A stretch of DNA of 20,000 nt from IMG/VR virus record IMGVR_UViG_3300021364_000011; one strand, written 5' to 3'. Below the pieces are notes generated by a model. That model was not told the origin of the DNA. It saw only the letters and a list, made by a program, of their open reading frames with translations, and did not search any database. This DNA is from an uncultured virus (IMG/VR IMGVR_UViG_3300021364_000011) (taxonomy: Duplodnaviria; Heunggongvirae; Uroviricota; Caudoviricetes). This document shows, piece by piece, positions 1,443-18,760 of the stretch; within the stretch, counting starts at the first letter, position 1, and every line of letters starts with the position of its first letter. The position numbers and the translations under genes were made by a program.

Positions 1443-1627
1443 TACTCGGCTTCACCTGTTGGTTCTTCTTGAGTTTTATTCATCCAATCTACTTGCATTT
1501 CAACTCTTTTCATATCGATTGTTTCTGCAGCTTTCTGTTTGATTCCGTCAAAGACTTGGTCTTTTGCAGTATCTAACTTACCTGCTTCGATTGAGTTTAC
1601 TATCTCTTTTGCTATTTCACTACTCAT
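1442..1627 (-). CDS. gp67: Small prohead core protein (gp67-like)
   Basis: 61 aa directly after the portal gene. The helical pattern IVNSIEAGKLDTAKDQVFDGIKQKAAETID plus acidic tail resembles T4 gp67. Confidence 0.6.
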   Translation of the reverse strand: MSSEIAKEIVNSIEAGKLDTAKDQVFDGIKQKAAETIDMKRVEMQVDWMNKTQEEPTGEAE

Positions 1628-1630
1628 TTA

Positions 1631-3166: not shown

Positions 3167-3171
3167 ACTAA

Positions 3172-3179
3172 TATTTATA
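3172..3179 (-). promoter_or_regulatory. Late promoter TATAAATA (for gp20; only 5 nt before the ATG)
   Basis: Minus strand reads TATAAATA-TTAGT-ATG. Confidence 0.8.
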
Positions 3180-3209
3180 CTCCCTTTTTAGGGGGTATGT
3201 CACTTTGAT

Positions 3210-3707: not shown

Positions 3708-3717
3708 TTAGTTCTCC

Positions 3718-5706
3718 TTAAACTGCACTGTAAATCTCTTCAAAGTCGACACCACTTCTGGCAGCAACAAAGTTGAGAGTTATAAAGTTAATACTTCTAG
3801 CAGGTTTCACAAAGATAGAACAAACGAATTCGTTTCTATCTATTACAGTATCAGTGTTGTTTGTTTCGTCACATAATACTGAAAAATCTACTAATCCACG
3901 TCTATTCTTAACATCTCTTAAGAAAGGTTCTACTGCAGCTCTAAATTGCGCTCTTGTGAATGCATCATTGAATTCAAAGAGTTGTGATTTAGCAGCTGTT
4001 GCGATTGCTTTTTCAAGAACAATGAATAACCTTCTGACATTGATTCTATCGAATGCTGAAGGTGATGATAAAGCTGTTTTATCACCGAATAATACTGTTC
4101 CTTGACCTGCGAATGTGCATACTGGGTTAATTCTTGCACGATATAAGTCATCTCTTGATGATTGTGAAGGATTAAATGCAAGTTTAGTAATACCTAAGTA
4201 TTGACCTCTTGAGAAACCAGCTGGTGAGAACCATGGGTCTCTTAATAAGTCTGACCTTGCCATTATCCCTGATGTATGTCCGTTAGCAGGAACATAACAG
4301 TATTTGTCGTTGTATCTGTCGTATGAATATACCCAACCACTGTCTAACACTGCATATGAGGAAGAAGTGACTGAAGCAAAATCAGCAATAACATTTGAAG
4401 ATTGTGTTGATTCACTTGAAACACCTACGACACTTGCACGTCTTGGTGAAGCAATAACCATACAATCTTTTCTATTTTCTGCGATTTGAATGATATTATT
4501 TACGATAGAATTATGGTCTGCAAGAATATCTTGTGAATTTCCTGAACCATCATCTGTTCTTGTAGAACCTACGATTAAGAATGAAACGTCTACTGTCTCT
4601 GCATCACCGAAATGGTCTGTATATGCACCATGTTTCTGTCCAGCAGTTGGGATTCTTCCGTCAACACCACCACCTAGTGATACGTTGATTACTGCAGAAG
4701 GTCTTCCGAAAGCTGTTGTTGCAGATGTTAAATGTGTTCTTTCTTCGTTTGCACTAGTCAATAAGTCGGTTGAGTGACCTGACCAGTAAACGTATTCTGA
4801 TTCTCTTGCAATTACATTTTTGTAGTAGTTAGATTGTCCTTGACTATCTTTACTATCTGAAGCAAGAGATACGAAACCATAAGTTTCTAAAATTGTGTTC
4901 TGAACTCCTGAGAACAGTCCGTCTTCGTCTGATATTACTACGTGAAGTTCATCATCTGAACCTCCAGCAGCTGTTGCTGTTCCTGACTTAGCAGGTGCTT
5001 TATCAAAAGAGTTATAAAACTCCCAATATCTATCTACGTTTGCACCTGAAGCTACAGTTGCAGTTAGACCTGTTCCAGCAGGTTGACCGATTGCTTCGAC
5101 TACGATTGAAGTTCCATCGGGAATTGAAGTCACTCTATATTCTGTATTGTGACCTGCGAATTTAACGATATCTCTTACAAACATACCTGAAGAATCATTT
5201 ACTGAGATAGTTGTTTGTCCAACTGATTCTTGTCCCGAAAGTGTAGTCACTGCATCGTTAAAATATGCATCTGATGACGCACATACTGAAACTTTTAGTG
5301 AATTACCTAATGAACCCGCGTATTTTGCAACCCAATTACCAACTGTTCCGTTTTGTGAACCATTTTGGTAAGTAGATACATACTCGTCATTATTCTTTAG
5401 TAATGCAGTTCCACTTGATGCGTTTGCATTGTTTAACCCAGTTGAGTTAATTCTTACGACCCTTAGTGAAGAACCATATTTAAGGAATGCTTCTGCTGAA
5501 TAGAAGTCTTCTGCTCCAGCATCAGTATTAGCTGGTTGATAGAAATTATCGACTAAACCCTTTGCATCTGAAACTGTTATAACTTCATCAACAGGGCCCC
5601 ATTGGAATTGTCCAGCAAATGCACCTGTAGTCGATGAAACGGCTGGAACAACATTTGTCAGGTCTATCTCTTTTACCTGAACGCCTGGTGATACTTGAAA
5701 TGCCAT
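3718..5706 (-). CDS. gp18: Contractile tail sheath protein (T4 gp18)
   Basis: Motifs SPGVQVKEIDLT, GQFQWGP, PWFSPAGFSRG, FGDKT, FDRINVRRLF, KPARSINFITLNF; RBS CAGGAG. Confidence 0.98.
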   Translation of the reverse strand: MAFQVSPGVQVKEIDLTNVVPAVSSTTGAFAGQFQWGPVDEVITVSDAKGLVDNFYQPANTDAGAEDFYSAEAFLKYGSSLRVVRINSTGLNNANASSGTALLKNNDEYVSTYQNGSQNGTVGNWVAKYAGSLGNSLKVSVCASSDAYFNDAVTTLSGQESVGQTTISVNDSSGMFVRDIVKFAGHNTEYRVTSIPDGTSIVVEAIGQPAGTGLTATVASGANVDRYWEFYNSFDKAPAKSGTATAAGGSDDELHVVISDEDGLFSGVQNTILETYGFVSLASDSKDSQGQSNYYKNVIARESEYVYWSGHSTDLLTSANEERTHLTSATTAFGRPSAVINVSLGGGVDGRIPTAGQKHGAYTDHFGDAETVDVSFLIVGSTRTDDGSGNSQDILADHNSIVNNIIQIAENRKDCMVIASPRRASVVGVSSESTQSSNVIADFASVTSSSYAVLDSGWVYSYDRYNDKYCYVPANGHTSGIMARSDLLRDPWFSPAGFSRGQYLGITKLAFNPSQSSRDDLYRARINPVCTFAGQGTVLFGDKTALSSPSAFDRINVRRLFIVLEKAIATAAKSQLFEFNDAFTRAQFRAAVEPFLRDVKNRRGLVDFSVLCDETNNTDTVIDRNEFVCSIFVKPARSINFITLNFVAARSGVDFEEIYSAV

Positions 5707-5744
5707 ACTTTTACTCCTGTTGTATTAAAAGTTGTTTACTGTTT

Positions 5745-5752
5745 TATTTATA
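5745..5752 (-). promoter_or_regulatory. Late promoter TATAAATA (for gp18-gp19)
   Basis: Exact motif in the gp17-gp18 intergenic gap. Confidence 0.85.
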
Positions 5753-5772
5753 ACTTTATAAAACTCAACAAA

Positions 5773-7374
5773 CTATAATTTTAATGGAACGTCCATTGTT
5801 TTGTGATACCATCTATCCCCCTCACTATCTACAAAGGATTCTTGTTGATTTCCTCCGTCAAAAACCCCTGGCGGCAGTAAGTCGTCTTCGATTAGTTTCT
5901 GTTGTTCTGAATACAATAAGTCTTTGACTGCTGTATCCGTTAAATGAACAAAATACTCAGTTGTCACAAACCAACTGAATAACACTAAATTCATGACCAT
6001 ATCGTCATTATATCCTCTATCTGCTTCCCAACTATTACCTTTATGCACAAAAGTCATTAATTCCGTAATAGTATATCGGTCATTCAGAACAAGTCTATTT
6101 TCTTCTAATAATTCTTTCAGTGTAGAACAACCGATACGTTTAATCTTTCGAGACATAGTCACTCCTATGTCCTCCGCCTTTAATTGTCCTTGAACAAAAA
6201 CATTCGGATATTCGATATCATAATGTAGTTGATTTGCAACTGTTCCACCTTCTGCATTATTTTCAATGATAACAACTGGTTCATTGTAATGTCTTACGTA
6301 TTTATTTATAATATCAGGAAAGAGAAGAGGTGACACCATATTATCTCTATATGTGCATACTTGTTTAAATGGACTTGTTGTCACGTCTATAATAGTGAAT
6401 GTAGAGTAATCCATACCCCTTCCTTTTGATACGTCTACAGTGCAAACGTATCTATGTCCTTCTTTTGGTTTTTCATATAGAAATAGATTGTCTCTATTCC
6501 ATTCAGGGTCTATTGCTCTCATACCAAGTAGTGTATTACTGTTGATAAGTGTATTACCAGTTCCTAAGAATGAATTACCATATTCTTGTTCAAATTGTGC
6601 TTCTGAAGTGTTTGCAATGGTTTCTTTCTTCCATTCTTCATCTCTGCCAGGCACGTCAAACCAGTTAATAAGAAATGATTTGTATTCTGATTGTTCATGA
6701 ACTGCAGACTCATATATCTTGTGGAACATATTACCCACACCATTTGCAGTAGAAGTAATAATAACCTTTGAATCTTTACCTGAGGTCACCACGGGATATG
6801 TTGCAGTATAGAACGTCTCTGCATCGTCCACAAAGGCAAACTCGTCAAGATACAATAAATTGATTGACATACCACGAATCGAACTTGAAGAAGTTGCAGC
6901 TGCGACAACTTTACTATCATTACTAAATTCTATTGACCCTTTGTTTAGAATCTTAACACCAGGCTGTAAAAAGAATGGAACAGACTCTAACATGGTCACG
7001 ATACGTGCAATCATTTCTCTTGCAATTGCACCTTTGTTAGCAAGAACTGCTACAGTGACTTCGGGTTTAAATAGTAGGAACCACAATAGATATGCACAAG
7101 AAGTGATTGATTTACCACTCTGTCTACTTGCAAGAACAACACTAAATCGGTTTTCGTCATAGTGATTGATTAGATTTTCTTGGTATCCACGAAGGGTAAA
7201 GGGAACCATACCTTCGTCTAGTGATATGATTTGTGTATAATTTTCAATGAAGTGTGTAGGATTTTCAGAACACTTCAAGTATTCTGCCATTTCTTTATCG
7301 GTGTATTTTGTTTCTACACCAGCTCTCTTGATTAGATTATTACCAAGATATCCGTCATTCTTAGAATCAGTCAT
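5773..7374 (-). CDS. gp17: Terminase large subunit (T4 gp17)
   Basis: Walker A SRQSGKS, Walker B LLYLDEFAFV, ITSTANG, nuclease motifs TVDVSKGRGMDYS and DDMVM; uninterrupted ORF. Confidence 0.98.
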   Translation of the reverse strand: MTDSKNDGYLGNNLIKRAGVETKYTDKEMAEYLKCSENPTHFIENYTQIISLDEGMVPFTLRGYQENLINHYDENRFSVVLASRQSGKSITSCAYLLWFLLFKPEVTVAVLANKGAIAREMIARIVTMLESVPFFLQPGVKILNKGSIEFSNDSKVVAAATSSSSIRGMSINLLYLDEFAFVDDAETFYTATYPVVTSGKDSKVIITSTANGVGNMFHKIYESAVHEQSEYKSFLINWFDVPGRDEEWKKETIANTSEAQFEQEYGNSFLGTGNTLINSNTLLGMRAIDPEWNRDNLFLYEKPKEGHRYVCTVDVSKGRGMDYSTFTIIDVTTSPFKQVCTYRDNMVSPLLFPDIINKYVRHYNEPVVIIENNAEGGTVANQLHYDIEYPNVFVQGQLKAEDIGVTMSRKIKRIGCSTLKELLEENRLVLNDRYTITELMTFVHKGNSWEADRGYNDDMVMNLVLFSWFVTTEYFVHLTDTAVKDLLYSEQQKLIEDDLLPPGVFDGGNQQESFVDSEGDRWYHKTMDVPLKL

Positions 7375-7777
7375 CTTTTTTCTTTTCTTTCTTCAAAAAC
7401 TTTTGTAGTTCTGAAGTAGAACCAACGTATAGGTGATTTTCAACTTTACCTATTCTTTGTTCGTCTTCCTTTTCTAAATCTTTTAATTTCTTTTGAACGT
7501 CTATGAGTTTTTCTGCAGTATCGGCTACAGTCTTAATAAGTTGTCCTGCGACTTCATATGCACGTGGGTGTTCGGTTTCTTTGGAAAGTTCTAATATACC
7601 TTCGATTGCATCTTGACCACGTTCTACGAGGTTATAGAGGTTCTCTCTTGCATATTTGTAGTCTGTATCGATATTCTCTATCCTTGACGGGACTTTGACT
7701 ACCTTGACTTCTTTTTTGATTTCAGTGTTGATATCTAATAAAGAATCTAACTTTTCATCTACTGTTTCTTTTGTCAT
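7367..7777 (-). CDS. gp16: Terminase small subunit (T4 gp16)
   Basis: Motifs DYKYARENLY, HPRAYEVAGQLIK, YVGSTSELQK; overlaps the gp17 start. Confidence 0.95.
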   Translation of the reverse strand: MTKETVDEKLDSLLDINTEIKKEVKVVKVPSRIENIDTDYKYARENLYNLVERGQDAIEGILELSKETEHPRAYEVAGQLIKTVADTAEKLIDVQKKLKDLEKEDEQRIGKVENHLYVGSTSELQKFLKKEKKKDD

Positions 7778-7779
7778 AA

Positions 7780-8823
7780 TTAACTGTCATCGGTTTCACT
7801 GAATGATTCTTTAGAACCATCGTCATAAAATGTCACTGTTTCTGCAACTACGAAAGTATCACTTGGTTCTACTGAACCTACAAATTTAAGTTTAGTGTTC
7901 TCTCCTAGTGTCACAGCAGAACTTAAATCTATTGATAATCTATCACTTGCAATAGAGGAAACTGTTGGATTTGGTGTTAAATTCGTTCCAAAGACCTCAT
8001 CTCCTACACTTATCTTACTATTTATTGCAGTTGCAAAAGGAACTGTTGCAGTGCTAGTCACTGCAGTAGAACTAGTTTCTGCAAAAGCAGGTTCATAATG
8101 TTTAACTTCTTTGACCAATCCACTCTCATTAATTTGTGAAGTTGTGAATTGACCTGAGATATCAGTATTGATATATTCTCTTTCGACAACGTTTTTGATA
8201 ACTGTTCCAGTATAAACAGGGCCGAAGAAATAAATTTTCATAGTAAATTCAAGTGTATATTCTATTACACGTCTTTCTTCAAAACTTCCTTCGTATGTAT
8301 CTTCCAAACCTACAGAATTTAATGTGATTGGAACGTCCCTAACGTCTGACATATCGTCAATCATTTTCATTGTGACTGTATATTCAGGTTGGAAATATGG
8401 TAAAATTTGTTCTACAATCTGTAATGCATCAGACATATTCTTTGCAAGAACACTTAGTGTAAAGTTTAGATTGTATGGTGCTGGGTTATATTGATACCCA
8501 CGATTTACTCCGTCTGTTTCTAAACTTGATTTAGAATGACGTATTAATTTGTTCTGTTGTCTAGTTGCATCATACTCAAACCCCGTTAATTCGAATGCCA
8601 TTCTTGGAAGGTTGATTGAGGTGACGTTTAAATCCCTTTCTTTTGCATCTTCTGTAAGTCTTGCAAGGAACTTTTGTTTAGGGCCGTATGAAATGGGAAC
8701 GAGTTGTTGTGATAAAACTGTTCCGTCTTCTTTAATCTTTTTACAATAGATATTATTGAACAGTGTTCCAAATATCGATACAGACCTTTTTATGGTTTCG
8801 TGATAAAAATGAGTTCCAAACAT
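7780..8823 (-). CDS. gp15: Tail sheath stabiliser/completion protein (T4 gp15)
   Basis: Motifs MFGTHFYHETI, FGTLFNNI, VPISYGPKQKF, LPRMAFE, QIVEQILPYFQP. Confidence 0.95.
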   Translation of the reverse strand: MFGTHFYHETIKRSVSIFGTLFNNIYCKKIKEDGTVLSQQLVPISYGPKQKFLARLTEDAKERDLNVTSINLPRMAFELTGFEYDATRQQNKLIRHSKSSLETDGVNRGYQYNPAPYNLNFTLSVLAKNMSDALQIVEQILPYFQPEYTVTMKMIDDMSDVRDVPITLNSVGLEDTYEGSFEERRVIEYTLEFTMKIYFFGPVYTGTVIKNVVEREYINTDISGQFTTSQINESGLVKEVKHYEPAFAETSSTAVTSTATVPFATAINSKISVGDEVFGTNLTPNPTVSSIASDRLSIDLSSAVTLGENTKLKFVGSVEPSDTFVVAETVTFYDDGSKESFSETDDS

Positions 8824-9680
8824 TAGGGTTCTCCAAACGGATTTGTTTCACTAAAGTCTAGATAATTATTATCCTTATCTTCGAAGTCTTTATTTTGTGC
8901 AACACTTCCTTCCATAGTCATTACGTCAACAATACTTGCAATCGTTCTTGTTGCACCCGAGGTTGCACCGACAAGTCTATCTCCTTGTGCAAGTGTTGTA
9001 GTGTTATCCTTAATAATGAGTTCTCTGTTTGAACCCCTGAAGTTTACAACCTCACCAACTACGACACTATTCAATGTGACGTTTTCATTTGCAACATAAC
9101 TTCCTGAATCACCTTCACCTTCTGTCATAGTCATAGAAATTGTGTATGCTCTATCTTGTTCAACCAAGTCTGCATCTGTTCCAGTATCGAAGTCTTCTCC
9201 ACCATATTCGAACAATGAACAACGCATTTTGAATACAAATAGTTTTCCTAACTGGAAGAATGGATTTTGGTCTTCTACGAATCTGATTTCAAACATAGAA
9301 CCTGAAAGTGGGAAGTAAATTAAATCCCCTTCATTTGGTCTAAGTGAAGTTGCAAGGTTTGAATCAAGTGATATAAATCTTTCCCATGTTCTCAATGATA
9401 TCACAAAGGTTGCTTCTTCATTGATTTGAACACCAAATTTAGACATGAGGTCACCCTCACCCTCGAATCCACCGCCTGGATTTTCTAAATACATTTCTAC
9501 AGAATATGCATCACCGAAACGTGATTGAACGTCTTCAGTTAGAATTGAGTCTTCTTCGATTATCTCCCTAGGAAGATAGAAGACATCATGACCATAGAAT
9601 CTTAACGACTCAACAACTAAATCTTCGTAAAGGTGTTGTTCAGTGTTGACTGCATGGTTAAAAAATACATTTGTAGGCAT
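8823..9680 (-). CDS. gp14: Neck protein (T4 gp14)
   Basis: Motifs EQHLYEDLVVESL..YGHDVFYLPRE, SKFG, RPNEGDLIYFPL, PFFQLGK, C-terminal DFSETNPFGE. Confidence 0.95.
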   Translation of the reverse strand: MPTNVFFNHAVNTEQHLYEDLVVESLRFYGHDVFYLPREIIEEDSILTEDVQSRFGDAYSVEMYLENPGGGFEGEGDLMSKFGVQINEEATFVISLRTWERFISLDSNLATSLRPNEGDLIYFPLSGSMFEIRFVEDQNPFFQLGKLFVFKMRCSLFEYGGEDFDTGTDADLVEQDRAYTISMTMTEGEGDSGSYVANENVTLNSVVVGEVVNFRGSNRELIIKDNTTTLAQGDRLVGATSGATRTIASIVDVMTMEGSVAQNKDFEDKDNNYLDFSETNPFGEP

Positions 9681-9684
9681 TCAA

Positions 9685-10500
9685 TTACCCCATCATATCC
9701 ATGACTGGCATTTCGAAATTCAGTCGGGATTCTTCTTCTAATCTTGTTATCTCTTCTTGTGCTTCTGTTTTCATTTGAGCTCCGTCTAGTGTTATACCAC
9801 CAGGCAACTCAACTCCTTGGAATTTAGAGAGGTTCTCTCCCCATTGATACTTCACTAATGCAGTTGAATACTTTTTCAACCACATATCATTATAGATATC
9901 AGTCATGTCTGTTGGGTCTAATTTTCTATAACATTCAATAATGATATACTCACCAGCACTTAATTTACTTGCACTGTAGTCCATGTAAAGTCTGTTAGAG
10001 TGCATATTGTATCTAATAGGTATCTGACCCACTAGGATATCGTTTAAAAGTGACAAGTGTGATTGAACTTGTGAATAGTATAAAACACTTGTTGAAGTTA
10101 AATCATATAAATCATTCAATCTTAATTGATACTGGATATCAAACATACTTGAAGTTTGACCTGAATTGAAAGGGAAAATATTGATTACACTTAACACATG
10201 TTCGGGTAGTGTAATGTAGTTTTGACCTTCTCCGTAAGTTTGTCCTGAGATTGCTTGTGTTCCAGTTGTAGCTGCATTATGAGTTTCATTCGTTTTGAAT
10301 GAATCAATTTCATCTTGAGTGATTTGGTGTTTTAAATACGTCTTAATAGAACCATCGTAATGATATTCTCTGAAATATTGCAGTGCTTCGTCAATTCTAT
10401 CATCAAACTGGTCATCGTCCACGTTGATTTCTAGAACGGGAGCTCCAAGTTTTCTTTTGATATACTCTTTTAAGGCTGCTTTTGAATTCGGTTCTGACAT
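9685..10500 (-). CDS. gp13: Neck protein (T4 gp13)
   Basis: Motifs LKEYIKRKLGAPVLEINVDDDQ, WLKKYSTALVKYQWGENLSKF.GVELPGGITLDG. Confidence 0.96.
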   Translation of the reverse strand: MSEPNSKAALKEYIKRKLGAPVLEINVDDDQFDDRIDEALQYFREYHYDGSIKTYLKHQITQDEIDSFKTNETHNAATTGTQAISGQTYGEGQNYITLPEHVLSVINIFPFNSGQTSSMFDIQYQLRLNDLYDLTSTSVLYYSQVQSHLSLLNDILVGQIPIRYNMHSNRLYMDYSASKLSAGEYIIIECYRKLDPTDMTDIYNDMWLKKYSTALVKYQWGENLSKFQGVELPGGITLDGAQMKTEAQEEITRLEEESRLNFEMPVMDMMG

Positions 10501-10822: not shown

Positions 10823-11521
10823 CTATGTAGAAAGTTTATGTATAAGTTTTCCGTTATTATCTACTTCAAAACACAATTCATCAGGGTGAAAACCTTTAGG
10901 GTCACCACCTACGGGGACTTGTTTGGTTAAATACCGAGTAGACATATTAAATGATATACTATATCTATCTTTATCAGTTTGGTTAGGTTCTACCATATGC
11001 ATTAATGCACTTGGAAAAAGAAATAAGTGACCAGTTCTAGGTGCAAGTCTAAAGGTTTGACTTTCTCTTGGTGAATGGGGAAAATCTGAAACTACCTTTG
11101 GGTCTTTATCGAGTGCAACAAAGTTCCCTTCATCTCCTTCTGAATGGACATAGAATACACCACTATACCAACAACCATTATGTAAATGTGGAGCATTCCA
11201 TGCACCTTTATCATTTATGTTTGCCCATGAATTTGAAATGTTTAACTGAACTTGACTAGAACTATGTCCAGTATAATTAAGTAATTCTGTATTAAACTTA
11301 TGATTGATAATTCTCAATAATTTAGTAAAGATAGGACTTGACTCACACCCGTCATTTGATTGCCAACCAGTGTATTGGTTGGATATTCTTCTTCCTACTG
11401 GGTCTGTCTTTCTCATAGAGTCTATTTCATTTTTAAGTAAATCAATATAGTCTTGTTCTAGTTGACCAGTCTCTAATAAGTTGTCTTCGATACAGACATA
11501 TGGAAATAATAATCTAATCAT
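10823..11521 (-). CDS. 2OG-Fe(II) oxygenase (TIGR02466-like family)
   Basis: WANIN..GAWNAPHLH (HxH), SGVFYV, LFLFPSALMHMVEPN, RYSISFN: double-stranded beta-helix metal and 2OG-binding motifs. Confidence 0.88.
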   Translation of the reverse strand: MIRLLFPYVCIEDNLLETGQLEQDYIDLLKNEIDSMRKTDPVGRRISNQYTGWQSNDGCESSPIFTKLLRIINHKFNTELLNYTGHSSSQVQLNISNSWANINDKGAWNAPHLHNGCWYSGVFYVHSEGDEGNFVALDKDPKVVSDFPHSPRESQTFRLAPRTGHLFLFPSALMHMVEPNQTDKDRYSISFNMSTRYLTKQVPVGGDPKGFHPDELCFEVDNNGKLIHKLST

Positions 11522-12425
11522 TATCTAAATCTAACTCTAATTGTTTTTCATAACCTGACATCACATCTGCAGCGTCATCAACAGCACTATGCATAGGACA
11601 TTCAGGTGGTGGATTTCCTTCATTAAAATTTTTACCCTTTTGTTTGTGCATTTTACCCATTCTATAACCACCTAGTTTGTCATCTTTATCCCTAGCTGTT
11701 TGAGAGGTATCTACTTGTCTATTAAATTCGTCCATACTTTTATAACCTGAATTATTTGTAATATGACTTCTATTGTCTAACCAAGATTGGTGTTCATATG
11801 TTATATAGGTTGCCTGCCATTCCTCTCTTTTAAATGGTATGACTTGAACTAGAGGAGTTCCTTTTGGTATAACGAAGGAATGATTTACACGTGGATAAAA
11901 GATAATTTGTGCATTATCGTAATTTGTATTAAAGGTATCTGTATCTATTACACCTTGCCATGTTGCAAAATATTTGTTTTGAAATAAAAATGGGTCTAAG
12001 TAAAACGTTGAATAACCAGGCGGTGTTTTTATGTTCCATGGATTTCTCATTTTAAATGCACCCCTAACTGGTGCATCTTCATCATGTAAATATTGAAATG
12101 CATATCCCATTTGTGCAGAAGGGTGTGTAGGTGAAGGCATTTCTGTTCCTCCGTCAAACTCATGTGTTGCAACCCATTCATCATCTGTATCACCATCAAG
12201 TCTACCATTCTTCACAATAATATCTCTATTAGATAATAGATACCAACCACTCTTCAACCAATCGTCCATAGCAGGACATGAACGTATTGTTGCTTGTTTA
12301 ATTCCACGATTATACTCACGGAATTTCATTTTATTCCACCATTCAGGTTTTATAGATTTTGCAAGAACTGGTTTAGAGTCCTTGAGTGTATCTTCATTAA
12401 ATGTGCTAAATTCTATTGTGGGCAT
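11514..12425 (-). CDS. DUF6065-like protein (often near phage 2OG oxygenases)
   Basis: Motifs PEWW, TIRSCPAMDDWLKSGW, NPWNIKTPPGYS, GVIDTD, IPKGTPLVQVIPFKRE; recognised from memory of the family. Confidence 0.65.
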   Translation of the reverse strand: MPTIEFSTFNEDTLKDSKPVLAKSIKPEWWNKMKFREYNRGIKQATIRSCPAMDDWLKSGWYLLSNRDIIVKNGRLDGDTDDEWVATHEFDGGTEMPSPTHPSAQMGYAFQYLHDEDAPVRGAFKMRNPWNIKTPPGYSTFYLDPFLFQNKYFATWQGVIDTDTFNTNYDNAQIIFYPRVNHSFVIPKGTPLVQVIPFKREEWQATYITYEHQSWLDNRSHITNNSGYKSMDEFNRQVDTSQTARDKDDKLGGYRMGKMHKQKGKNFNEGNPPPECPMHSAVDDAADVMSGYEKQLELDLDND

Positions 12426-13150
12426 TGTCTAAACCAATAATTGTCTTCTACTAATCTAATTTCGTCACCTCGTATTACGATTGACTTCCTATCTATATAT
12501 CGTGCTTCTTCAGTGGGTGCGTCGGCACCATGTGGTATTCTTCCGTCAAAAACCACTAATCTATTTGGTTTGAAAGGAATCTCTGCAATTTGGTGATTCT
12601 TTATATGATTTTCTCTACCATGTAAACCTTGTTGCATTTCGTCATAGATTCTCAAAGGGCCTCCCCAATGTTCTGACCATATAGTATTTGTATAATATAA
12701 AAAAGATAAATTCCATTCGTCTTCTTGCATACAATCTGCATGAGTTGTTCCATGTAAACCTTGTGTTTGTGAATTTAATCCCATGTATTGAAACCTTACC
12801 CATTCAAAACCAAAATCAGTTTGTAGTTTTCTATCTAACCATTTTGCACAACACTTAGTGTCTAGATATAGATTAATTTCGGGGTCTGTATCGGGATAAT
12901 TTCCTACGTCTATCAAACTCGAATTGGTTCCCTTCATCATAGTTGCACCCCAAAATTGGTGATGAGGTAAACCTGTAGGACTATCTCCAGTGACTTGGTT
13001 ATTTTTTGACCAAATATTATTAACACTAACTGCCCTGTTAACCCAATGGTGTAATTGCACAGGCAACCAATCATCAATAATATGAATATCTTTTAGTGGG
13101 AATCCTACGTCTTTTAGTTTAAAGGACTCATTATGATAAATGAGTTCCAT
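12413..13150 (-). CDS. 2OG-Fe(II) oxygenase, prolyl-4-hydroxylase-like
   Basis: HAD (HxD), LSFLYY.N..W...WGG.L, FKPNRLVVFDGRIPH, RKS (2OG-binding Arg). Confidence 0.88.
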   Translation of the reverse strand: MELIYHNESFKLKDVGFPLKDIHIIDDWLPVQLHHWVNRAVSVNNIWSKNNQVTGDSPTGLPHHQFWGATMMKGTNSSLIDVGNYPDTDPEINLYLDTKCCAKWLDRKLQTDFGFEWVRFQYMGLNSQTQGLHGTTHADCMQEDEWNLSFLYYTNTIWSEHWGGPLRIYDEMQQGLHGRENHIKNHQIAEIPFKPNRLVVFDGRIPHGADAPTEEARYIDRKSIVIRGDEIRLVEDNYWFRQCPQ

Positions 13151-13747: not shown

Positions 13748-15301
13748 TTACAAGTAGGTTTTTGCCTTCACCCAAATATCTAAATTATTTATGTTGGAAT
13801 AATCCATACCTTTTACCCAAGGGCCTCCCCTAGTGTAGTGTATTCCAGTGTAATCCCACTTCTCATCAGGATTATCATAACCTTCAGTAAAGATATACTT
13901 TTCAGGTATTGGACTTATCTTATCAGTCCACTCAAATTGATGTAATTGAGCTCCCGTCCAAGTGTTCACTACTTCAGGTGTTAACTTCTTACAGTCTTCA
14001 TGTCCATTATTGAATATCATTAATGATGACCATAACTTACATGGATAATCTATATTTACTTGTCCGTCAAATTTAGTTTCGTCATGTTTGATTTGTGGAT
14101 ACTTGATACATGCAACTGCATCGTCCATATTCAGATAATAGAACAATGATAGAATAGATTTTCTCCATATGAAGTCATTATCAATAAAGATACTAAACCC
14201 TTCATAGTTTTCTAAGTAGGGGATTAAAAATCTACTGTAGGTGAATTCAGTATTTTGATTTGCATATGGTCTATTATAATCGGGAAGTTTTGCAATGTCA
14301 AGGAATTTGATTTCGGGTTCCCAATGACACTCTTTCATAAGTTGACCACGGCTAGGTTGTAGTGTTTTTAGAATTGTTTTCTTATTTACTTCGTGTAAGT
14401 CACCATGGTTTGAATCATAACCTATGTAAATGTTTAAAGGTTTTCCTTTTGATTGTAAATGAACTCTCTTATTGAAATCATAAACTTCTTGTCGAAAATT
14501 TAAATCCATTAAATCATGTTGATATTCTATAACTCCATTAACGAAAGTTATGGACGTATTTTTGTGTTTTGAATTTCTCTCGTTTAACTTTTTAGTCCAA
14601 TATTCCAGTGCTTCGTCACACGTTAAGGGTTCTGTATCTAATACGTCCCAAGGGTCTGTTGCAAAAATTTCAAAAGTAGGGTCTTCTAATTCTTCGTATA
14701 CTTTTGACCTTATAGAGCCTGGGTGAATTCTAAAACCAAATCTATCGTCAATTTTAAATGTTGTTCCTTGAATTGGGTGTCTCAAACCTTCTTCTTGTAT
14801 ACTTTGAATTAACCAATGTGCTTTTGCACTATGATAATACATTGAATTTAGAGTGGTTTCAGTCTGAGGTGTGATTTCTGTATTAGGTTCAAACTCTACA
14901 TAATCTTTGATTTGTGCATACTCAGGTTCTCCGTCAACTATCCTTGCACAATCCATTTGACCTGTAATTTTATTTGGTCTTTCTTTACAAGTCCATACGT
15001 GTGGTAAGAATTTTTGATAATGAACTGATTCGTTTGCGGCACCAAAGAAGGGAACAAATTTCTTCTGTTTACGAAGTTCTAAAATATCACCCCATTTAAT
15101 TACTTTAGTAGGTGGTGCAATATTTTCAAACACCCATTTAAAATTTTTATATGCGTCTGACTCTTTATCAACGTCACTTATATCGTCTATAGTTCCTAAA
15201 TGATATGCACCTAGGCTATACCAATCAGCACTACTTAAAGTTTTATAGTCTATAGGTTGAATAGTTGAACGGACTTCTTCTAAGGTTTTCAGTTTTTTCA
15301 T
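13748..15301 (-). CDS. Glycosyltransferase (GT-A fold, C-terminal) fused to an N-terminal ParB/Srx-like region
   Basis: C-terminal half has IYIGYD, TEFTYSRFLIPYL, FIDNDF (DxD), YPCKLWSSLMIFN, LHQFEW, HYTRGGPW. N-terminal half has LIQSIQEEGLRHPI...IHPGSIR, which resembles the ParB-N motif. Confidence 0.8.
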   Translation of the reverse strand: MKKLKTLEEVRSTIQPIDYKTLSSADWYSLGAYHLGTIDDISDVDKESDAYKNFKWVFENIAPPTKVIKWGDILELRKQKKFVPFFGAANESVHYQKFLPHVWTCKERPNKITGQMDCARIVDGEPEYAQIKDYVEFEPNTEITPQTETTLNSMYYHSAKAHWLIQSIQEEGLRHPIQGTTFKIDDRFGFRIHPGSIRSKVYEELEDPTFEIFATDPWDVLDTEPLTCDEALEYWTKKLNERNSKHKNTSITFVNGVIEYQHDLMDLNFRQEVYDFNKRVHLQSKGKPLNIYIGYDSNHGDLHEVNKKTILKTLQPSRGQLMKECHWEPEIKFLDIAKLPDYNRPYANQNTEFTYSRFLIPYLENYEGFSIFIDNDFIWRKSILSLFYYLNMDDAVACIKYPQIKHDETKFDGQVNIDYPCKLWSSLMIFNNGHEDCKKLTPEVVNTWTGAQLHQFEWTDKISPIPEKYIFTEGYDNPDEKWDYTGIHYTRGGPWVKGMDYSNINNLDIWVKAKTYL

Positions 15302-15341: not shown

Positions 15342-16550
15342 TTAATATTCACCAACATTACCGCCGGGATCGAAGATTTGTTTCGCCATGTTATGTGCAA
15401 CAACTCCGTCTGTATAGAAATTACCTATTTCTAATATATGGTATACTTCTTTTTCTTCACCAGTATCAATAATATCTTTTAGAACTGCAGAACCCCAAAC
15501 TGATTGAAGTTTATCACCAACTTTTAGATTGACTTCATTTAATTCTTCACCATACATTTGTTCAGTATTTTCAAACTGAGGGTGAGATTCTTTCCAATAT
15601 TCATTATCTACAACACCCCATGTTCCGTCTACTAGTTTGAATGGGTGGTCTTTTGTTGTTCCTAATTCTGCAACTGTATCTCCGTTTTCATTTGCAATAA
15701 CGAGGTTAACAACTTTAGTAGGTCTTGGTGACATAAGTTTTTCAACTTCTTTAACAATTTGACCTTCCTCACTCCAAACTTTAATTTGGTCACCCAATAC
15801 GATTGACTCAATTGGTTTTGTTGTTCCGTCATGCATAAGAATAGGTGTCCCAGCAACGAAACAACCTCCACCACCACCACTGATAAAGTAGTAAGACACT
15901 GCAGTCCTAGCGTTATATGTAAATGGATTCCTTCCACTAACAGGTTGTCTAGCATTAGCAATGTAAGGCACACGATATGTGAAAGGTGACCTAAATGCTA
16001 CTGGTTGTCTAGCATTAGCAATATAAGGCACACGATATGTGAAAGGTGACCTAAATGCTACTGGTTGTTGAATATTCGCAGGATACCTTGCGTCATAAGT
16101 GAATGGGTTTTGTGCATTACTTGGTGACTGAGCATTCGCAGGATACCTTGCGTCATAAGTGAATGGGTTTTGTGCATTTCTAATATTAGGTTGTTGTCCA
16201 TTTACTGGATTCTGATACGTAAATGGTGTTTGTCTATTTCTAATATTAGGTTCTTGTGCATTTACTGGATTTCTATATGTAAATGGTGACCTATGTTGAT
16301 ACGTAGAAGGTTGTCTTGCATCTGCAATATAAGGTTGTTGACCATTTGCAATATATGGTGTTTGACTGTTTGCAATATAAGGATAAGGAACTTGTGTAAG
16401 TTCTTGACCCGAAGCATTATTCCACCCTGAAGGTGTTTTGATATAGATTTGGTCAACTGCACTCCAAGTAGAGGAACCAGTTTTAACCCATGCACCTTGG
16501 GTCGCATTCCAACCTGTAGGTGTCTTGACTGATTGATTTCCTGATGCCAT
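15342..16550 (-). CDS. Repeat protein A: Trp-rich N-terminal adaptor, Pro/Tyr/Gln/Asn repeats, Gly5 linker, C-terminal Hint (intein-like) domain
   Basis: aa 1-48 contain three K-T-x-x-(x)-G/T-W units; aa 53-218 contain PFTY/ANARQP repeats; aa 230-387 form the Hint domain. Confidence 0.9.
   Translation of the reverse strand: MASGNQSVKTPTGWNATQGAWVKTGSSTWSAVDQIYIKTPSGWNNASGQELTQVPYPYIANSQTPYIANGQQPYIADARQPSTYQHRSPFTYRNPVNAQEPNIRNRQTPFTYQNPVNGQQPNIRNAQNPFTYDARYPANAQSPSNAQNPFTYDARYPANIQQPVAFRSPFTYRVPYIANARQPVAFRSPFTYRVPYIANARQPVSGRNPFTYNARTAVSYYFISGGGGGCFVAGTPILMHDGTTKPIESIVLGDQIKVWSEEGQIVKEVEKLMSPRPTKVVNLVIANENGDTVAELGTTKDHPFKLVDGTWGVVDNEYWKESHPQFENTEQMYGEELNEVNLKVGDKLQSVWGSAVLKDIIDTGEEKEVYHILEIGNFYTDGVVAHNMAKQIFDPGGNVGEY
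15390..15863 (-). other. Hint (Hedgehog/intein) autoprocessing domain, aa Cys230-Asn387
   Basis: Block A CFVAGTPI, KPIESIVLGD, block B TTKDHPF (TxxH), LKVGD, block F/G VYHI..NFYTDGVVAHN. No homing endonuclease. The +1 residue is Met. Confidence 0.9.
15897..16394 (-). repeat. Coding tandem repeats, mostly 60-bp (20-aa) period with 24-bp (8-aa) units at the 5' end
   Basis: Near-identical 60-bp duplications are visible, e.g. aggcacacgatatgtgaaaggtgacctaaatgctactggttgt twice (about 15966 and 16026) and cgcaggataccttgcgtcataagtgaatgggttttgtgcatt twice (16077 and 16137). Confidence 0.92.
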
Positions 16551-16558
16551 GTCTTATA

Positions 16559-17131
16559 TTATCCTGTTATTGGTGACCCAGGCCACTGTTGTGATACCAC
16601 TCCGTCCCACCTTGCTTCAGGAGTTCTTCCTTGAGTCGCATATGTTGCTGGTTGTCTATTACTATATGTAAATGGTTGTCTATTACTATATGTAAATGGT
16701 GTCTGAGCATTTCTTATATTAGGTTCTTGTGCATTCACTGGATTTTGGTAAGTAAACGGACTTCTATGTTGATACGTAGAAGGTTGTCTAGCATTACTTG
16801 GGTTTCTGTAAGTGAATGGTGACCTATAGTTATATGTAAATGGTTGTCTTGCATTTGCACGATATGGAACCCTATAGGTAAATGGGTTTCTGTAAGTAAA
16901 TGGTTGTCTTGCATTTGCACGATATGGAACTCTATAGGTAAATGGTGACCTATATGTCACTGGTTGTTGAGCATTTGCTGGATACCTTGCACTATATGTA
17001 AAAGGTGACCTATATGTCACGGGTTGTTGAGCACTCGCAGGATACCTTGCACTATACGTAAAGGGACTTTGAAATGAGAAAGGCTGCTGAGCATTTGCAA
17101 TGTAAGGTTGTTGAGTAATTCCGATTGCCAT
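16559..17131 (-). CDS. Repeat protein B: Pro/Tyr/Gln/Arg repeats, paralogue of the repeat region of protein A
   Basis: 190 aa, almost entirely PFTY/ANAxQP repeats. It shares ARQPSTYQHRSPFTY and NPVNAQEPNIRN with protein A and ends in a short Trp-containing tail. Confidence 0.88.
   Translation of the reverse strand: MAIGITQQPYIANAQQPFSFQSPFTYSARYPASAQQPVTYRSPFTYSARYPANAQQPVTYRSPFTYRVPYRANARQPFTYRNPFTYRVPYRANARQPFTYNYRSPFTYRNPSNARQPSTYQHRSPFTYQNPVNAQEPNIRNAQTPFTYSNRQPFTYSNRQPATYATQGRTPEARWDGVVSQQWPGSPITG
16619..17116 (-). repeat. Coding tandem repeats, 60-bp period with 24-bp units at the 3' end
   Basis: gatatggaac..ataggtaaatgg at 16861 and 16921; gataccttgcactata at 16981 and 17041; ggttgtctattactatatgtaaat twice at 16650-16697. 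Confidence 0.92.
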
Positions 17132-17158: not shown

Positions 17159-17166
17159 TATTTATA
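17159..17166 (-). promoter_or_regulatory. Late promoter TATAAATA (for repeat proteins B and A)
   Basis: Exact motif in the 17132-17185 intergenic gap. Confidence 0.85.
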
Positions 17167-17185: not shown

Positions 17186-18760
17186 TTAGGAGTAAAGAAT
17201 CCACAAGTCACCAACTGCACCATCACCTGAAGCAGGAGCTGATGTTGATTGGTAAACGTTTCTAGCAGTTCCACCACTGTTTGTTGCATTGGTGATAGTA
17301 ATTGCACCTGAGGCAACAGTTCCTACAGAAATATTTGGAGTTCCAGTCAATCCTTGTGCATTTACAGCAAGAGTTGCATTTGAAGCTGTTCCTGTTAAAT
17401 CTCCAGTGACATCTCCAGTGACATTACCTGTTAATGCACCTTCGAAAGTTCCAGCAACAAAAGTTTCTGAACCTACAGTCCATTTGTCATTTGTTTCGTC
17501 CCAAAGAAGTGTCTTAGCAGCAGAACCACCTCTAGTGATACTAATACCTGAATCTTCTGTTGGTGAACCTGAAGTGAAATTACTGTTTAATGCAATTACG
17601 TTATCTGCAAGTGAAATAGTTTCTGAGTTTACAGTCGTTGTAGTTCCTGAAACTGTTAAGTCACCTGTAATTGCAACATTGTCATTTAATGTGACATTAC
17701 CTGAACCATTACCACTTAATACTAAGTTAGTGTCTGTTGATTTTGAAGCAATTGCATCAACTACTATATTATTACTGAATGATATTTCGTTTCCAGCACT
17801 GTTAGTAATATTTTGTCCGTCTTCGATTTGAAGAGGGCCTTTAACAGCAATTACACCACTTCCAGTTGGGTCTAGTTCTAAATCACCCGAACCACTTGGT
17901 TGTATTGACATATTTTGGTTATCGTCTGCACTAAAAACAATAGTTCCTGAATCGTCTTCAATAACTTTTTGTCCGTTAACATATAATGAACCTGGCCCGA
18001 TATACACGTCCTTCCACATCTTGGAAGATGAACCTAAGTCGTAAGTGTTATCTGCACTTGGGATTATATTCCCATCAAAACTTCCACCACCTAAGTAAGA
18101 TTTAACACGTGCATCAGTATAATAGAGGTTGCTTGACCCTTCTGAAAGGTCATCTGAGTCGTTATTAGATAAATCTATATCTGTAGCAGTTTCAGCTTTT
18201 GTTGAGGTGTTCTTACTTCTTGATTGAAGTTTACCATTACTATCTCTTTTAAGAACAAGAACGTCTGAACCTGTTCCAAGTTCGATTTCTGCAACTTTAA
18301 GTGATTTTAATGTTCCACTTTCAGAAACTTCAACGTTTCCGTCTGAATCTTTTGAAAGTTCTGTTCCACCTAAGTTAATAGTTGAACCAGCAAGGTATAA
18401 ATCATTCCACCTTGCACTTGAAGAACCTAAGTCCCTTGTTTCGTTTCCATCAGGGATTAAATTACCTCCCCAAGTTGCACTGTAGTCGATAGCAAGTGAA
18501 ACGTCACCTGAAGTTCCACCACCTGATAGACCTGTTCCAGCAGTGACTCCAGTCACATCACCAGTTTGTCCGTCAATTGTTAGTGTGTTTGCACTATCGT
18601 CATATGTTAATGTTATACCTGTTCCCGCAGTCAAGAGGGTATTGACTCTATCGTCAATCGAATCAGTTATGGTAGAACCCGTAAGTCTACCTGAACTGTC
18701 TATAACCTCTGTTGTCCCGACTGTAAGACCATTCTTGATTATAAAGTTCTTAGCTGTCAT
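17186..18760 (-). CDS. Virion fibre/tail-fibre-like structural protein
   Basis: Gly/Ser/Thr/Asp-rich with motifs typical of marine phage fibres: TAGTGLSGGG, IPxxDxTxDLGSSSxxWxDxY twice, DDLSEGSSNLYYT, GDLTVSGTTTTVNS, LLWDETNDKW, C-terminal SAPASGDGAVGDLWI. Confidence 0.8.
   Translation of the reverse strand: MTAKNFIIKNGLTVGTTEVIDSSGRLTGSTITDSIDDRVNTLLTAGTGITLTYDDSANTLTIDGQTGDVTGVTAGTGLSGGGTSGDVSLAIDYSATWGGNLIPDGNETRDLGSSSARWNDLYLAGSTINLGGTELSKDSDGNVEVSESGTLKSLKVAEIELGTGSDVLVLKRDSNGKLQSRSKNTSTKAETATDIDLSNNDSDDLSEGSSNLYYTDARVKSYLGGGSFDGNIIPSADNTYDLGSSSKMWKDVYIGPGSLYVNGQKVIEDDSGTIVFSADDNQNMSIQPSGSGDLELDPTGSGVIAVKGPLQIEDGQNITNSAGNEISFSNNIVVDAIASKSTDTNLVLSGNGSGNVTLNDNVAITGDLTVSGTTTTVNSETISLADNVIALNSNFTSGSPTEDSGISITRGGSAAKTLLWDETNDKWTVGSETFVAGTFEGALTGNVTGDVTGDLTGTASNATLAVNAQGLTGTPNISVGTVASGAITITNATNSGGTARNVYQSTSAPASGDGAVGDLWILYS

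Follow-up and report, generated by a model that had tools for sequence, protein, structure and literature searches.

The triple β-spirals of adenovirus and reovirus and the β-helices of T4 gp5 and gp12 are repetitive, β-rich virion appendages punctuated by proline or glycine, and to our knowledge each of these trimeric viral fibres is a parallel homotrimer encoded by a single gene, and none needs a second chain of mirrored order. Rods built from two arms are found in streptococcal antigen I/II, in which an alanine-rich helix is wound with a proline-rich helix, and in SMC/Rad50 with its coiled-coil arms; as the arms are of matched length, their repeat numbers must change together. In the T4 gp37 needle the strands run antiparallel along the axis because the chain reaches the tip and then returns. 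The trimer of this needle (domains D10-D11, PDB 2XGF) is described as being held by seven histidine-bound iron ions (PMC6957217).

Here we analyse two adjacent phage genes, A and B, whose repeat tracts resemble each of these systems in part. Like the trimeric viral fibres they are repetitive, punctuated and apparently β-rich, and would form long virion appendages; like antigen I/II and SMC/Rad50 they present two repeat regions of matched length that would run antiparallel in an extended rod, but the latter use α or polyproline-II helices within one chain, whereas A and B have a period of 2, are usually separate gene products and carry a discrete unit code. The gp37 needle is likewise a long, thin, β-rich element of a T4-type fibre, and the single-chain relatives of A/B would share its hairpin logic, an out-and-back course with which both their self-mirrored sequences and the mirrored two-gene pairs are compatible. 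It differs in having one chain per arm pair, of about 200 residues and not split over two genes, and in lacking both proline-punctuated units and a two-type code. Sequence searches of cultured phages returned no relative of the A/B tracts and no cultured phage carrying the pair, profile searches of PDB sequences with the tracts gave no match (gp37 included), and the ESM Atlas yielded weak unnamed or viral clusters only, without a model. Literature searches by keywords and by five peptide motifs found no description of the family (one motif match was unrelated), and we found no description in this literature of a fibre design of a mirror-coded chain pair.

The genes are neighbours on the minus strand of a 20,000 nt stretch, the window, of the uncultured virus IMGVR_UViG_3300021364_000011 (Caudoviricetes; Table 1). 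Gene B has 214 related stretches among viral contigs and gene A 227, while a separate set of 391 homologues of A contains none with a name. T4-type late-promoter-like boxes occur seven times in the window, all on the coding (minus) strand, against 1.93 expected, a count equalled in one of 200 shuffles of the window. One such box precedes B and none precedes A, whose ATG lies 8 nt past the stop of B, and the two genes are probably co-transcribed. In each of 70 loci the pair has a fibre-like gene on one side and the gp13-gp21 block on the other; this gene is itself a conserved neighbour, retained in all 70. A C1q-domain protein is also encoded upstream. Two marks of a phage fibre, a late box (before B) and a position in the fibre module, are thus found, and we take A and B to be late, presumably virion-associated proteins of a marine T4-like myovirus.

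Table 1. Features of the A/B locus (positions in the window; residues numbered from each start)
Feature	Position	Strand	Basis or remark
Fibre-like gene, 524 aa	17186..18760	(-)	PHROG tail fibre and spike matches; directly upstream of B
T4-type late-promoter-like box, TATAAATA	17159..17166	(-)	28 nt 5' of the ATG of B
Gene B, 190 aa, shorter chain	16559..17131	(-)	translation
B residues 1-171, proline-punctuated units of 6, 8 and 10 residues	16619..17131	(-)	opposite A 225-55 reversed
B residues 172-190, conserved tail	16562..16618	(-)	R174, W175, D176, W183, P184 and P187 invariant in 26 sequences
Gene A, 402 aa, longer chain	15342..16550	(-)	translation
A residues 1-54, conserved N-terminal domain with two KTPxGWN motifs	16389..16550	(-)	invariant residues
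A residues 55-224, repeat tract of 22 units	15879..16388	(-)	proline and unit analysis
A residues 225-229, GGGGG linker	15864..15878	(-)	opposite B residue 1; position of the single-chain turn
A residues 230-387, Hint domain, bacterial-intein-like type	15390..15863	(-)	AF2 and Foldseek
A residues 388-402, short C-flank, first residue Met	15345..15389	(-)	sequence
517-aa protein; residues 289-510 resemble nucleotide-diphospho-sugar transferases	13748..15301	(-)	annotations of tblastn matches
2OG-Fe(II) oxygenase	12413..13150	(-)	PF13640, 37.1 bits against a cut-off of 27

Recounting the prolines computationally from the translations gave 23 pairs between the two tracts, each summing to 226. Tract prolines run from 55, 57 and 65 to 209 in A and from 9 and 17 to 171 in B; others, absent from the initial annotation, lie in the N-terminal (11, 40) and C-terminal (236-395) domains of A and in the tail of B (184, 187). 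For the repeat tracts the proline lists of the initial annotation proved exact, as did its observation that the irregular spacing of A (10,8,8,8,6,6,8,6,6,8,8,6,6,8,6,6,6,8,6,6,8,6, in which the 10 arises from skipping P57) is read backwards in B and that all spacings are even. Its estimate of about 166 residues for each tract fell short of the predicted zipped span, which sets B residues 1-171 opposite A residues 225-55. No competing register comes close: the next best sum accounts for 14 proline pairs and the best same-direction offset for 15. When the 23 intervals of B were placed in random order, none of 20,000 shuffles reached 23 matches (maximum 20), and when only its eight super-units were permuted 5 of 20,000 did so, which amounts to the true order with identical blocks exchanged.

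The sequence between the prolines is also patterned. Two kinds of unit, drawn by A and B from one vocabulary, can be distinguished: T units (xTY-type) open with P-x-T-Y, and N units (NAQ/YIAN/NIRN-type) end in N-A-Q/R-x-(P), as in xNAQx, YIANxxQ and NIRNxQx. Over the family pairs T stands opposite N in 2248 of 2375 rungs (94.7%), making B a 'reverse complement' of A, though the rungs are not independent observations since much of the type complementarity stems from self-complementary 'words' common to both genes. Shuffling the B units among rungs of equal length leaves a T:N share of 59.2 ± 1.0% (maximum 62.5% in 1000), and hetero-type rungs make up 81% in off-register mirrors and 44% in the parallel register. 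In this phage the rule is obeyed by 20 of 22 rungs, the unit string of A being the reverse complement of that of B at 20 of 22 units. Units of eight residues carry a sub-code, in which xTYx[HY]RS faces the NIR-type 388 times and the YIA-type 5 times, and xTYxxR[YQ] faces the YIA-type 397 times and the NIR-type never. Residue by residue, T2 lies opposite Q/R, Y3 opposite A/G/S, R6 opposite I and G7 opposite Y. In the true register 6% of positions set two aromatic residues face to face, compared with 17% in shifted registers, and aromatic residues opposite small ones are modestly enriched in the two-gene pairs (47% true, 37% shifted), with no enrichment in the single-chain forms (51% true, 60% shifted). 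A DNA-level origin of the mirror was rejected, inverted repeats between A and B being absent and direct repeats alone present, and a sense/antisense origin can be excluded, since a Pro codon does not yield a Pro codon when reverse-complemented and the observed pairs P:P, T:Q and Y:A do not fit.

The mirror extends across the family. We compared 71 A/B pairs with tract spans of 154-545 residues and 59 distinct unit strings, over which the reversed order holds; as the statistics were computed on sequences related by descent, without phylogeny correction, the figures are to be read as such. Tract lengths of A and B correlate with r=0.97, 63 of the 71 A proteins find their best mirror partner in the cognate B, and the median mirror Jaccard index is 0.72 for cognate pairs, compared with 0.27 for non-cognate ones and 0.36 when the register is parallel. 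The initial annotation had proposed to test whether repeat number and mirror register co-vary in homologues, and counted unequal tracts against the pairing: co-variation is borne out by those 63 pairs, while about 5-8 of the 71 (L042, L047, L117, L126 and L149, plus L030, L091 and L057) have no end-to-end match. These mismatched pairs differ by whole super-repeats of 20 or 44 residues in one partner and may reflect errors of assembly or bulges that are tolerated. Among 23 close locus pairs with an indel in the A string, a script scored an equal net change in B in 3, a count that is not a valid measure because terminal units and Hint-domain prolines distorted the script, as they did the gapped unit comparison. 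By inspection, about 7 of the same 23 carry the same block in both genes, 3 are Hint-proline artefacts and about 10 are truly uncompensated.

The register also places the non-repetitive parts of both proteins consistently, with the conserved end pieces of A and B falling at one end of the duplex. The first matched proline of A lies at residues 54-59 in 66 of 71 pairs, and B extends 17-19 residues past the partner of A's first tract proline in 63 of 71. At the other end the poly-Gly of A begins where residue 1 of B ends, and in 46 of the 47 pairs having a poly-Gly its start lies within -3 to +5 residues of the partner of that residue. In 17 loci the A/B slot, bounded by the fibre-like gene and the homologue of the 517-aa protein, is filled by a single gene, of which there are seven distinct forms (434-561 aa) that join the N-terminal domain of A to the tail of B. 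They are self-mirrored in end-to-end register, with 14-28 P:P pairs, a count that in 7 of 7 equals or exceeds the highest among 2000 permutations, and the self-mirror comes within 9-47 residues of the turn in mid-chain. AF2 places β strands at residues 21-45 of the N-terminal domain of A, at a pLDDT of only 46-53, and we presume this domain to be an anchor at the same duplex end as the tail of B.

The power of an apolar/aromatic indicator along the tracts is 13.35 at 180 degrees per residue, 0.38 at 100 and 0.15 at 120, with apolar residues at 55% of odd and 14% of even offsets, a strict period-2 pattern that suggests pairing of the β type. A collagen-like or polyproline-II repeat was rejected on the same spectrum, the period-3 power being 0.15 against 13.35 at 180 degrees, and for want of regular Gly in the units. 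Single-chain β-solenoids (hexapeptide, pentapeptide and similar) were rejected on the absence of a constant coil length, the unit orders being aperiodic with 10-8 repeats and 8-8-8-6-6 runs, and of a confident single-chain AF2 fold: both tracts are modelled at a pLDDT of about 30 (A below 35; B 34.8, with no secondary structure), which is weak evidence in that AF2 can fail on true solenoids.

Because the mirror match is kept in relatives, or fused there into a single hairpin protein, the chains most likely zip head-to-tail, giving a fibre that is long and thin. We put at roughly 70% the probability that the tracts of A and B form an antiparallel, register-coded β duplex belonging to a tail-fibre module, a reading drawn from sequence comparison. 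The proposal of the initial annotation that A and B pair antiparallel in one register, set by the irregular unit pattern, accordingly gains strong comparative support from co-variation, T:N complementarity, the end pieces and the single-chain forms. Residues 55-225 of A would zip with residues 171-1 of B over about 170 residues, a rung forming only when two units match in length and differ in kind, which would make B the reverse complement of A. Within a rung Pro would face Pro, Thr would face Gln/Arg and Tyr would face Ala/Gly/Ser, and the aperiodic unit order would fix a unique register. The resulting ribbon is predicted to turn Tyr, Phe and Ala to an apolar face and Pro, Thr, Gln, Arg and Asn to a polar one; if fully extended, it would measure about 55 nm, as the initial annotation proposed for a very thin two-chain ribbon. 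The N-terminal domain of A and the tail of B would come together at one end, probably anchoring the fibre, with a poly-Gly turn and a variable module at the opposite end; in this phage the module is a bacterial-intein-like (BIL) Hint domain, expected to cut itself off between Gly229 and Cys230.

How such a ribbon would be accommodated in a fibre is less certain. The duplex may be a building block, three A:B duplexes or hairpins packing their apolar faces on a threefold axis to give a six-stranded antiparallel shaft, analogous to the T4 gp37 needle and in series with or beside the upstream-encoded trimeric fibre. The face of the predicted ribbon that is 55% apolar or aromatic would need burial, phage fibres are generally trimers, and both a C1q-domain protein and the fibre-like gene lie upstream, the length of the latter tracking tract length (Spearman 0.67, n=48, without phylogeny correction). 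The gp37 needle is, moreover, described as a trimer stabilised along its length (PMC6957217). However, the mirror registers next in rank are poor, with 14 proline pairs against 23, so a second in-register strand interface between duplexes is not encoded, and on reading the sequences no HxH iron-binding motif was found in the A/B tracts. We hold the shaft as a tentative possibility, with the odds leaning against it.

On another reading, the essential feature would be chemical rather than architectural. Of 70 loci, 62-69 retain the order A/B pair, 517-aa protein, 187-aa protein, 2OG oxygenase (the transferase-domain 517-aa protein in 69, the oxygenase in 62, with many loci ending short of its position), and A/B might be substrates of this glycosyltransferase-domain protein and of prolyl-hydroxylase-like 2OG oxygenases, making a hydroxylated or glycosylated virion coat or adhesin. 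The PF13640 score and the transferase annotation taken from homologues fit such a role; yet no link leads from the enzymes to A/B, and the mirror code would go unexplained. In the pelagimyophage host-recognition region glycosyltransferases are described as common and are read as host-surface modifiers (PMC7029224). We consider modification an unlikely account of the tracts, and one compatible with, rather than opposed to, the antiparallel duplex.

A and B could also be independent repeat proteins, each a β-solenoid or disordered spacer, their mirror a by-product of exchanged self-complementary words. Direct DNA repeats of 65-84% identity do connect the two genes, the 20-residue period of 6+6+8 resembles solenoid coil lengths, and 5-8 of the 71 pairs carry uncompensated repeat differences. 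But recombination between genes on the same strand copies words in the same order, not the reverse order that holds over 59 unit strings with tract lengths at r=0.97; AF2 predicts a solenoid for neither tract (pLDDT about 30) and coil length is inconstant, and in the fused forms one chain carries both arms and brings the conserved ends together, leaving independence very improbable. That the chains run parallel, or as antiparallel A:A and B:B homodimers, as one unit vocabulary in both chains might allow, can be set aside almost entirely, the best parallel offset matching 15 prolines against 23 in the mirror with 44% hetero-type rungs, and A agreeing with its own reverse complement at a median of 0.12 (maximum 0.37) with 7 proline pairs in its best self-mirror.

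AF2 models the domain at the C-terminus of A at a pLDDT of about 90 (residues 230-392) in a Hint fold. Its top Foldseek match is BIL2 6y75 (E 2.6e-10, TM 0.79-0.80), with BIL 2lwy, many inteins and hedgehog 1at0 also among the top matches; 46 matches have E <= 0.001. A PDB sequence search with the Hint region gave matches only at E 0.05-0.9, and A scores below the Pfam gathering thresholds for PF05203 (21.4 against 32.1), PF01079 (18.5 against 29.7) and PF14890 (16.0 against 35.8), while relatives of A carry precomputed PF14890 and PF01079 matches. Pfam side matches of A/B to Cementoin, DUF1388 and AXH, sub-threshold and driven by composition, were discarded. The Hint catalytic residues of A are Cys230, T299-K-D-H302 and His386-Asn387; the Cys, TxxH and His-Asn residues are present in 19 relatives too, and 19-20 of the 71 family members have the domain at all. 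With Met388 at the +1 position, the C-flank of A has no +1 nucleophile, and none of the 19 Hint-bearing proteins (A included) has C, S or T there, the residue being G, F, L or M.

Type A BILs are described as having no nucleophilic +1 residue, unlike splicing inteins, and as mostly cleaving, with ligation possible through a free amine (PMC4031507). On its residues and modelled fold A 230-387 fits the type A definition given there, sharing the Hint fold, Cys1, TxxH, a terminal His-Asn and the lack of a +1 nucleophile; its setting is different, in that a poly-Gly linker joins it to the far end of a repeat protein of a phage fibre.

We see an even chance that A/B are, more fully, a protein analogue of a nucleic-acid duplex, in which two polypeptides, or two arms of one, consist of reverse-complement, proline-delimited units and have their length and register written in the sequence, and in which the Hint end may be captured by an amine of B. 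There would be at least five 'base pairs' (T6:N6, T8h:NIR8, T8a:YIA8, T10:Y10 and the self-pairing V6), and from this small unit alphabet and the reverse-complement chains it would follow that length and register of the fibre are written in sequence, giving β fibres of 50-180 nm that evolve by paired insertions. In Hint-bearing members a thioester at the poly-Gly end may be taken by the nearby N-terminal amine of B, and this capture would close both chains into the hairpin for which other phages have a single gene.

If the chains zip, A/B would establish a new principle for long rods, a sequence-coded antiparallel β heteroduplex in which a modular code sets both length and register, with dozens of natural length variants of the rod, and would offer structural biology and protein design natural rules for programmable β-strand pairing. 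They would also pose an evolutionary problem, as matching repeats must be gained and lost at mirrored positions of two genes. Such a duplex, if real, would account for a pair of genes that is conserved yet lacks annotation in the host-recognition region of marine T4-like phages, which are abundant and uncultured.

The initial annotation of this region held that two adjacent repeat proteins, A (402 aa) and B (190 aa), have mirror-imaged proline spacing and would pair as an antiparallel two-chain filament. Computational recounting reproduced its proline lists for both proteins, and 23 A/B proline pairs do have indices summing to 226, as against 14 pairs at the next best index sums and 15 at the best same-direction offset. 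None of 20,000 random orders of the B intervals reached 23 pairs (maximum 20), and permuting only the eight B super-units did so in 5 of 20,000. The mirrored alignment spans A55/B171 to A225/B1, leaving only the final 19 residues of B outside, and the GGGGG of A (225-229) begins where the first residue of B ends.

The mirror extends to homologues. Two viral-contig scans yielded 160 loci, 130 with a complete adjacent pair, which reduce to 70 distinct pairs, or 71 with the window; the 30 loci left out comprise 25 with a partner cut by the contig end and five single-gene forms. Each distinct pair consists of one A-type protein with the conserved N-domain (A residues 1-54) and one B-type protein with the conserved tail (B residues 172-190), ordered A then B in 59 of the 70 and B then A in 11. 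Tracts span 154 to 545 residues, and the A and B spans co-vary closely (r=0.97; 71 pairs, related by descent, kinship ignored). Mirror overlap has a median Jaccard index of 0.72 for cognate partners, compared with 0.27 for non-cognate partners and 0.36 for parallel registers (71 pairs, kinship ignored), and 63 of 71 A proteins find their best mirror partner in the cognate B. The first matched A proline lies at 54-59 in 66/71 pairs, B extends 17-19 residues past the partner of this proline in 63/71, and, of the 47 pairs with poly-Gly, 46 have it starting between -3 and +5 residues from the A position opposite B residue 1. The register runs end to end in most of the family, and the mirror is a family rule, not a coincidence.

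The stretches between prolines are of two kinds, T units, which start x-T-Y (e.g. FTYRN, STYQHRS, GTYARQGQT), and N units (xNAQx, YIANxxQ, NIRNxQx, YPYIANSQT). With A units facing B units in mirrored register, T stands opposite N in 2248 of 2375 rungs (94.7%; lengths 6, 8 or 10; 71 pairs, kinship ignored), as against 59.2 +/- 1.0% (maximum 62.5% in 1000) when B units are shuffled among equal-length rungs within a pair, 81% in the second to fourth best mirror registers and 44% in the best parallel register. A reads as the reverse complement of B in 20/22 units of the window and in 23/23, 29/29 and 58/60 units of the homologous loci L013, L092 and L145, respectively; compared with its own reverse complement, A shows a median agreement of 0.12, and there are 59 distinct unit strings among the 71 pairs. 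Both exceptions in the window set VAFRS against VTYRS, a self-pairing unit that forms the middle of a self-complementary word with an odd number of units. Rungs of 8 residues show a further level of specificity, in that xTYx[HY]RS is opposite NIR-type units 388 times and YIA-type five times, and xTYxxR[YQ] is opposite YIA-type 397 times and NIR-type never. Residue by residue, Thr2 stands opposite Gln/Arg, Tyr3 opposite Ala/Gly/Ser, Arg6 opposite Ile and Gly7 opposite Tyr; in two-gene pairs aromatic opposite small rises to 47% in the true register versus 37% shifted, and aromatic facing aromatic falls to 6% versus 17%. Direct DNA repeats of 65-84% identity link the two genes (16155-16321 with 16688-16854; 15914-16172 with 16813-17071); these are self-complementary unit words in opposite order in the two genes, on which gene conversion between the partners could act.

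Equal, mirrored tracts are found in most of the 71 pairs, but not in L042, L047, L117, L126 and L149, which lack a single end-to-end register. In L030, L091 and L057 just one of the two genes departs from its counterpart in near-identical relatives, by a whole super-repeat of 20 to 44 residues. Among 23 close locus pairs with an indel in the A string, a crude script found an equal net change in B in three. By reading, three of the 23 are artefacts of prolines in the Hint domain that follows some A tracts, about seven have the same block inserted in both genes (e.g. T8-T6-N6, L011 to L092; T6-N6-N8-T8-T8-T8, L140 to L148), and about ten are truly uncompensated. Misassembly of tandem repeats from short reads may explain these exceptions, or the bulges may be real and tolerated.

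In seven distinct proteins (434-561 aa, 17 loci) the A N-domain and the B tail are joined in one chain; these proteins occupy the same slot as the pair, between the fibre-like gene and the homologue of the 517-aa protein. In all seven the best self-mirror sum is length + 30, Pro58 pairing with a proline 28 residues from the end, and the 14-28 P:P pairs equal or exceed the maximum of 2000 second-arm permutations; matched prolines approach to 9-47 residues of each other at the mid-chain turn. Aromatic opposite small reaches 51% in the true register versus 60% shifted, so shows no enrichment here. Judged by sequence, these proteins appear to be single-chain hairpins, and the common A-then-B order would be such a hairpin split at the turn, the window's B-then-A order being the same two pieces swapped. 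They lend independent support to antiparallel pairing and to the conserved end pieces being side by side. On the contigs of L167 and L169, some 8 kb upstream of the single-chain form, is a second, 508-aa repeat protein (L234:1507-3033, L236:1555-3081) with the same unit vocabulary, different end domains, a GGQFKG loop in mid-chain and 15 self-mirrored proline pairs; two hairpin-type proteins are therefore present in some phages.

Every unit length is even, as first claimed; counted from proline, 55% of positions at odd offsets are apolar or aromatic, and 14% of those at even offsets. Spectral power for this pattern is concentrated at 180 degrees per residue (13.35, against 0.38 at 100 and 0.15 at 120), thus the alternation stays in phase from one end of the tract to the other. 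Antiparallel pairing sets odd offsets opposite odd and even opposite even, which would give a duplex with one Tyr/Phe/Ala face and one Pro/Thr/Gln/Arg/Asn face. Taking about 0.33 nm per residue, the canonical rise of a strand, a stretch of 171 residues would be about 56 nm long; for the longest tracts the figure would be about 180 nm. AF2 models of single chains leave B at pLDDT 34.8 with no secondary structure and A below 35 over residues 48-227; such unfolded models would fit folding on binding, and their low confidence speaks weakly against an autonomous solenoid.

Residues 230-392 of A, by contrast with the tract, are modelled at pLDDT about 90, and match the structures of Tetrahymena BIL2 (6y75; E 2.6e-10, TM 0.79-0.80), Clostridium thermocellum BIL (2lwy), many inteins and hedgehog (1at0); Pfam scores of the window protein for Hint families are below threshold. 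The Hint residues are Cys230, T299-K-D-H302 and His386-Asn387, followed by Met at +1. The module is present in at least 19 of 71 A proteins (16 by one pattern, and three more), probably also in that of L068, and Cys, Ser or Thr at +1 is absent from all 19. Type A bacterial intein-like domains are described, in PMC4031507, as lacking a nucleophilic +1 residue and as mainly cleaving, with ligation possible via a free amine; by its fold and residues the domain in A fits type A. The predicted Hint activity would cleave between Gly229 and Cys230, and the thioester could, speculatively, be captured by the adjacent B N-terminus. Members without Hint have the same poly-Gly, then a short tail or unrelated 90- or 140-residue domains, and this sequence comparison suggests that the Hint domain was inserted at the turn end. 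Unrelated 90- to 140-residue domains replace it after the tract in A proteins of 719-739 aa (L025, L027, L029-L031, L073) and in L078, L104, L114 and L156, loci in which the A-B gap is about 285-330 nt; these domains are possible receptor-binding modules at the far duplex end.

All window genes lie on the minus strand. In transcription order the fibre module containing A, B and their neighbours sits upstream of a T4-type structural block (506-10500; neck proteins, sheath stabiliser, small and large terminase, sheath, tube, portal and prohead protease by PHROG matches), the oxygenase stretch (10823-13150) being placed directly between fibre module and neck genes.

Genes of the fibre module and oxygenase stretch, in order of transcription
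Feature	Coordinates	Strand	Remarks
C1q-domain protein, 150 aa	19371-19823	-	PF00386, 49.5 bits
Fibre-like protein	17186-18760	-	upstream of B
Gene B, 190 aa	16559-17131	-	
Gene A, 402 aa	15342-16550	-	
517-aa protein	13748-15301	-	C-terminal half resembles nucleotide-diphospho-sugar transferases
187-aa protein		-	after 517-aa protein in transcription order
2OG-Fe(II) oxygenase, prolyl-hydroxylase-like	12413-13150	-	PF13640, 37.1 bits
303-aa protein, unknown family	11514-12425	-	between both oxygenases; PHROG 7084, function unknown
Second 2OG-Fe(II) oxygenase	10823-11521	-	PF13759, 73.9 bits

The C1q domain has a trimeric head fold of the kind typically seen at receptor-binding tips, and the open frame of its gene runs on to the window edge. 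A T4-type late-promoter box (TATAAATA) precedes the B start by 28 nt, one of seven in the window, all on the coding strand, versus 1.93 expected; A starts 8 nt past the B stop and has no box of its own. Between 52 and 70 of 70 loci preserve the order fibre-like gene, pair, 517-aa, 187-aa, 2OG oxygenase and 303-aa protein, the lower counts arising largely because loci end early, and the 517-aa neighbour is present in 69/70. Longer upstream fibre genes go with longer tracts (Spearman 0.67, n=48, kinship ignored). Residues 289-510 of the 517-aa protein match the phage transferases with E down to 1e-27, residues 1-288 have no match in Pfam, PDB sequences or cultured phages, and the 303-aa protein has no Pfam hit. 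The first oxygenase is called 'DNA endonuclease V' in PHROG 274, apparently a misnomer. No result ties the neighbouring enzymes to A or B as substrates. The window portal is at most 57% identical to cultured-phage portals, the best being those of Methylophilales phage Melnitz and Pelagibacter phage Mosig, and the 'host recognition cluster' of pelagimyophages, as described in PMC7029224, is the counterpart of the window's fibre region. Locus L162 (G001:C79:43845-45073) belongs to a 4.0-Mb, 99%-complete genome whose contig 79 carries a 93%-identical B copy and an A homologue; contig 79 could point to a host or be a phage contig placed there by binning.

The A/B tracts are absent from all cultured phages in the collection searched and have no match in PDB sequences by profile search, none of 391 homologues of A has an assigned name, and no published description of such a system was found in the literature searched. 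In working principle A/B comes closest to the T4 gp37 needle, in which one chain runs out and back, and to intramolecular antiparallel stalks such as antigen I/II or SMC arms. The gp37 needle is a trimer held by iron (PMC6957217). Unlike any of these, A/B is a two-gene, proline-delimited system with a two-type unit code.
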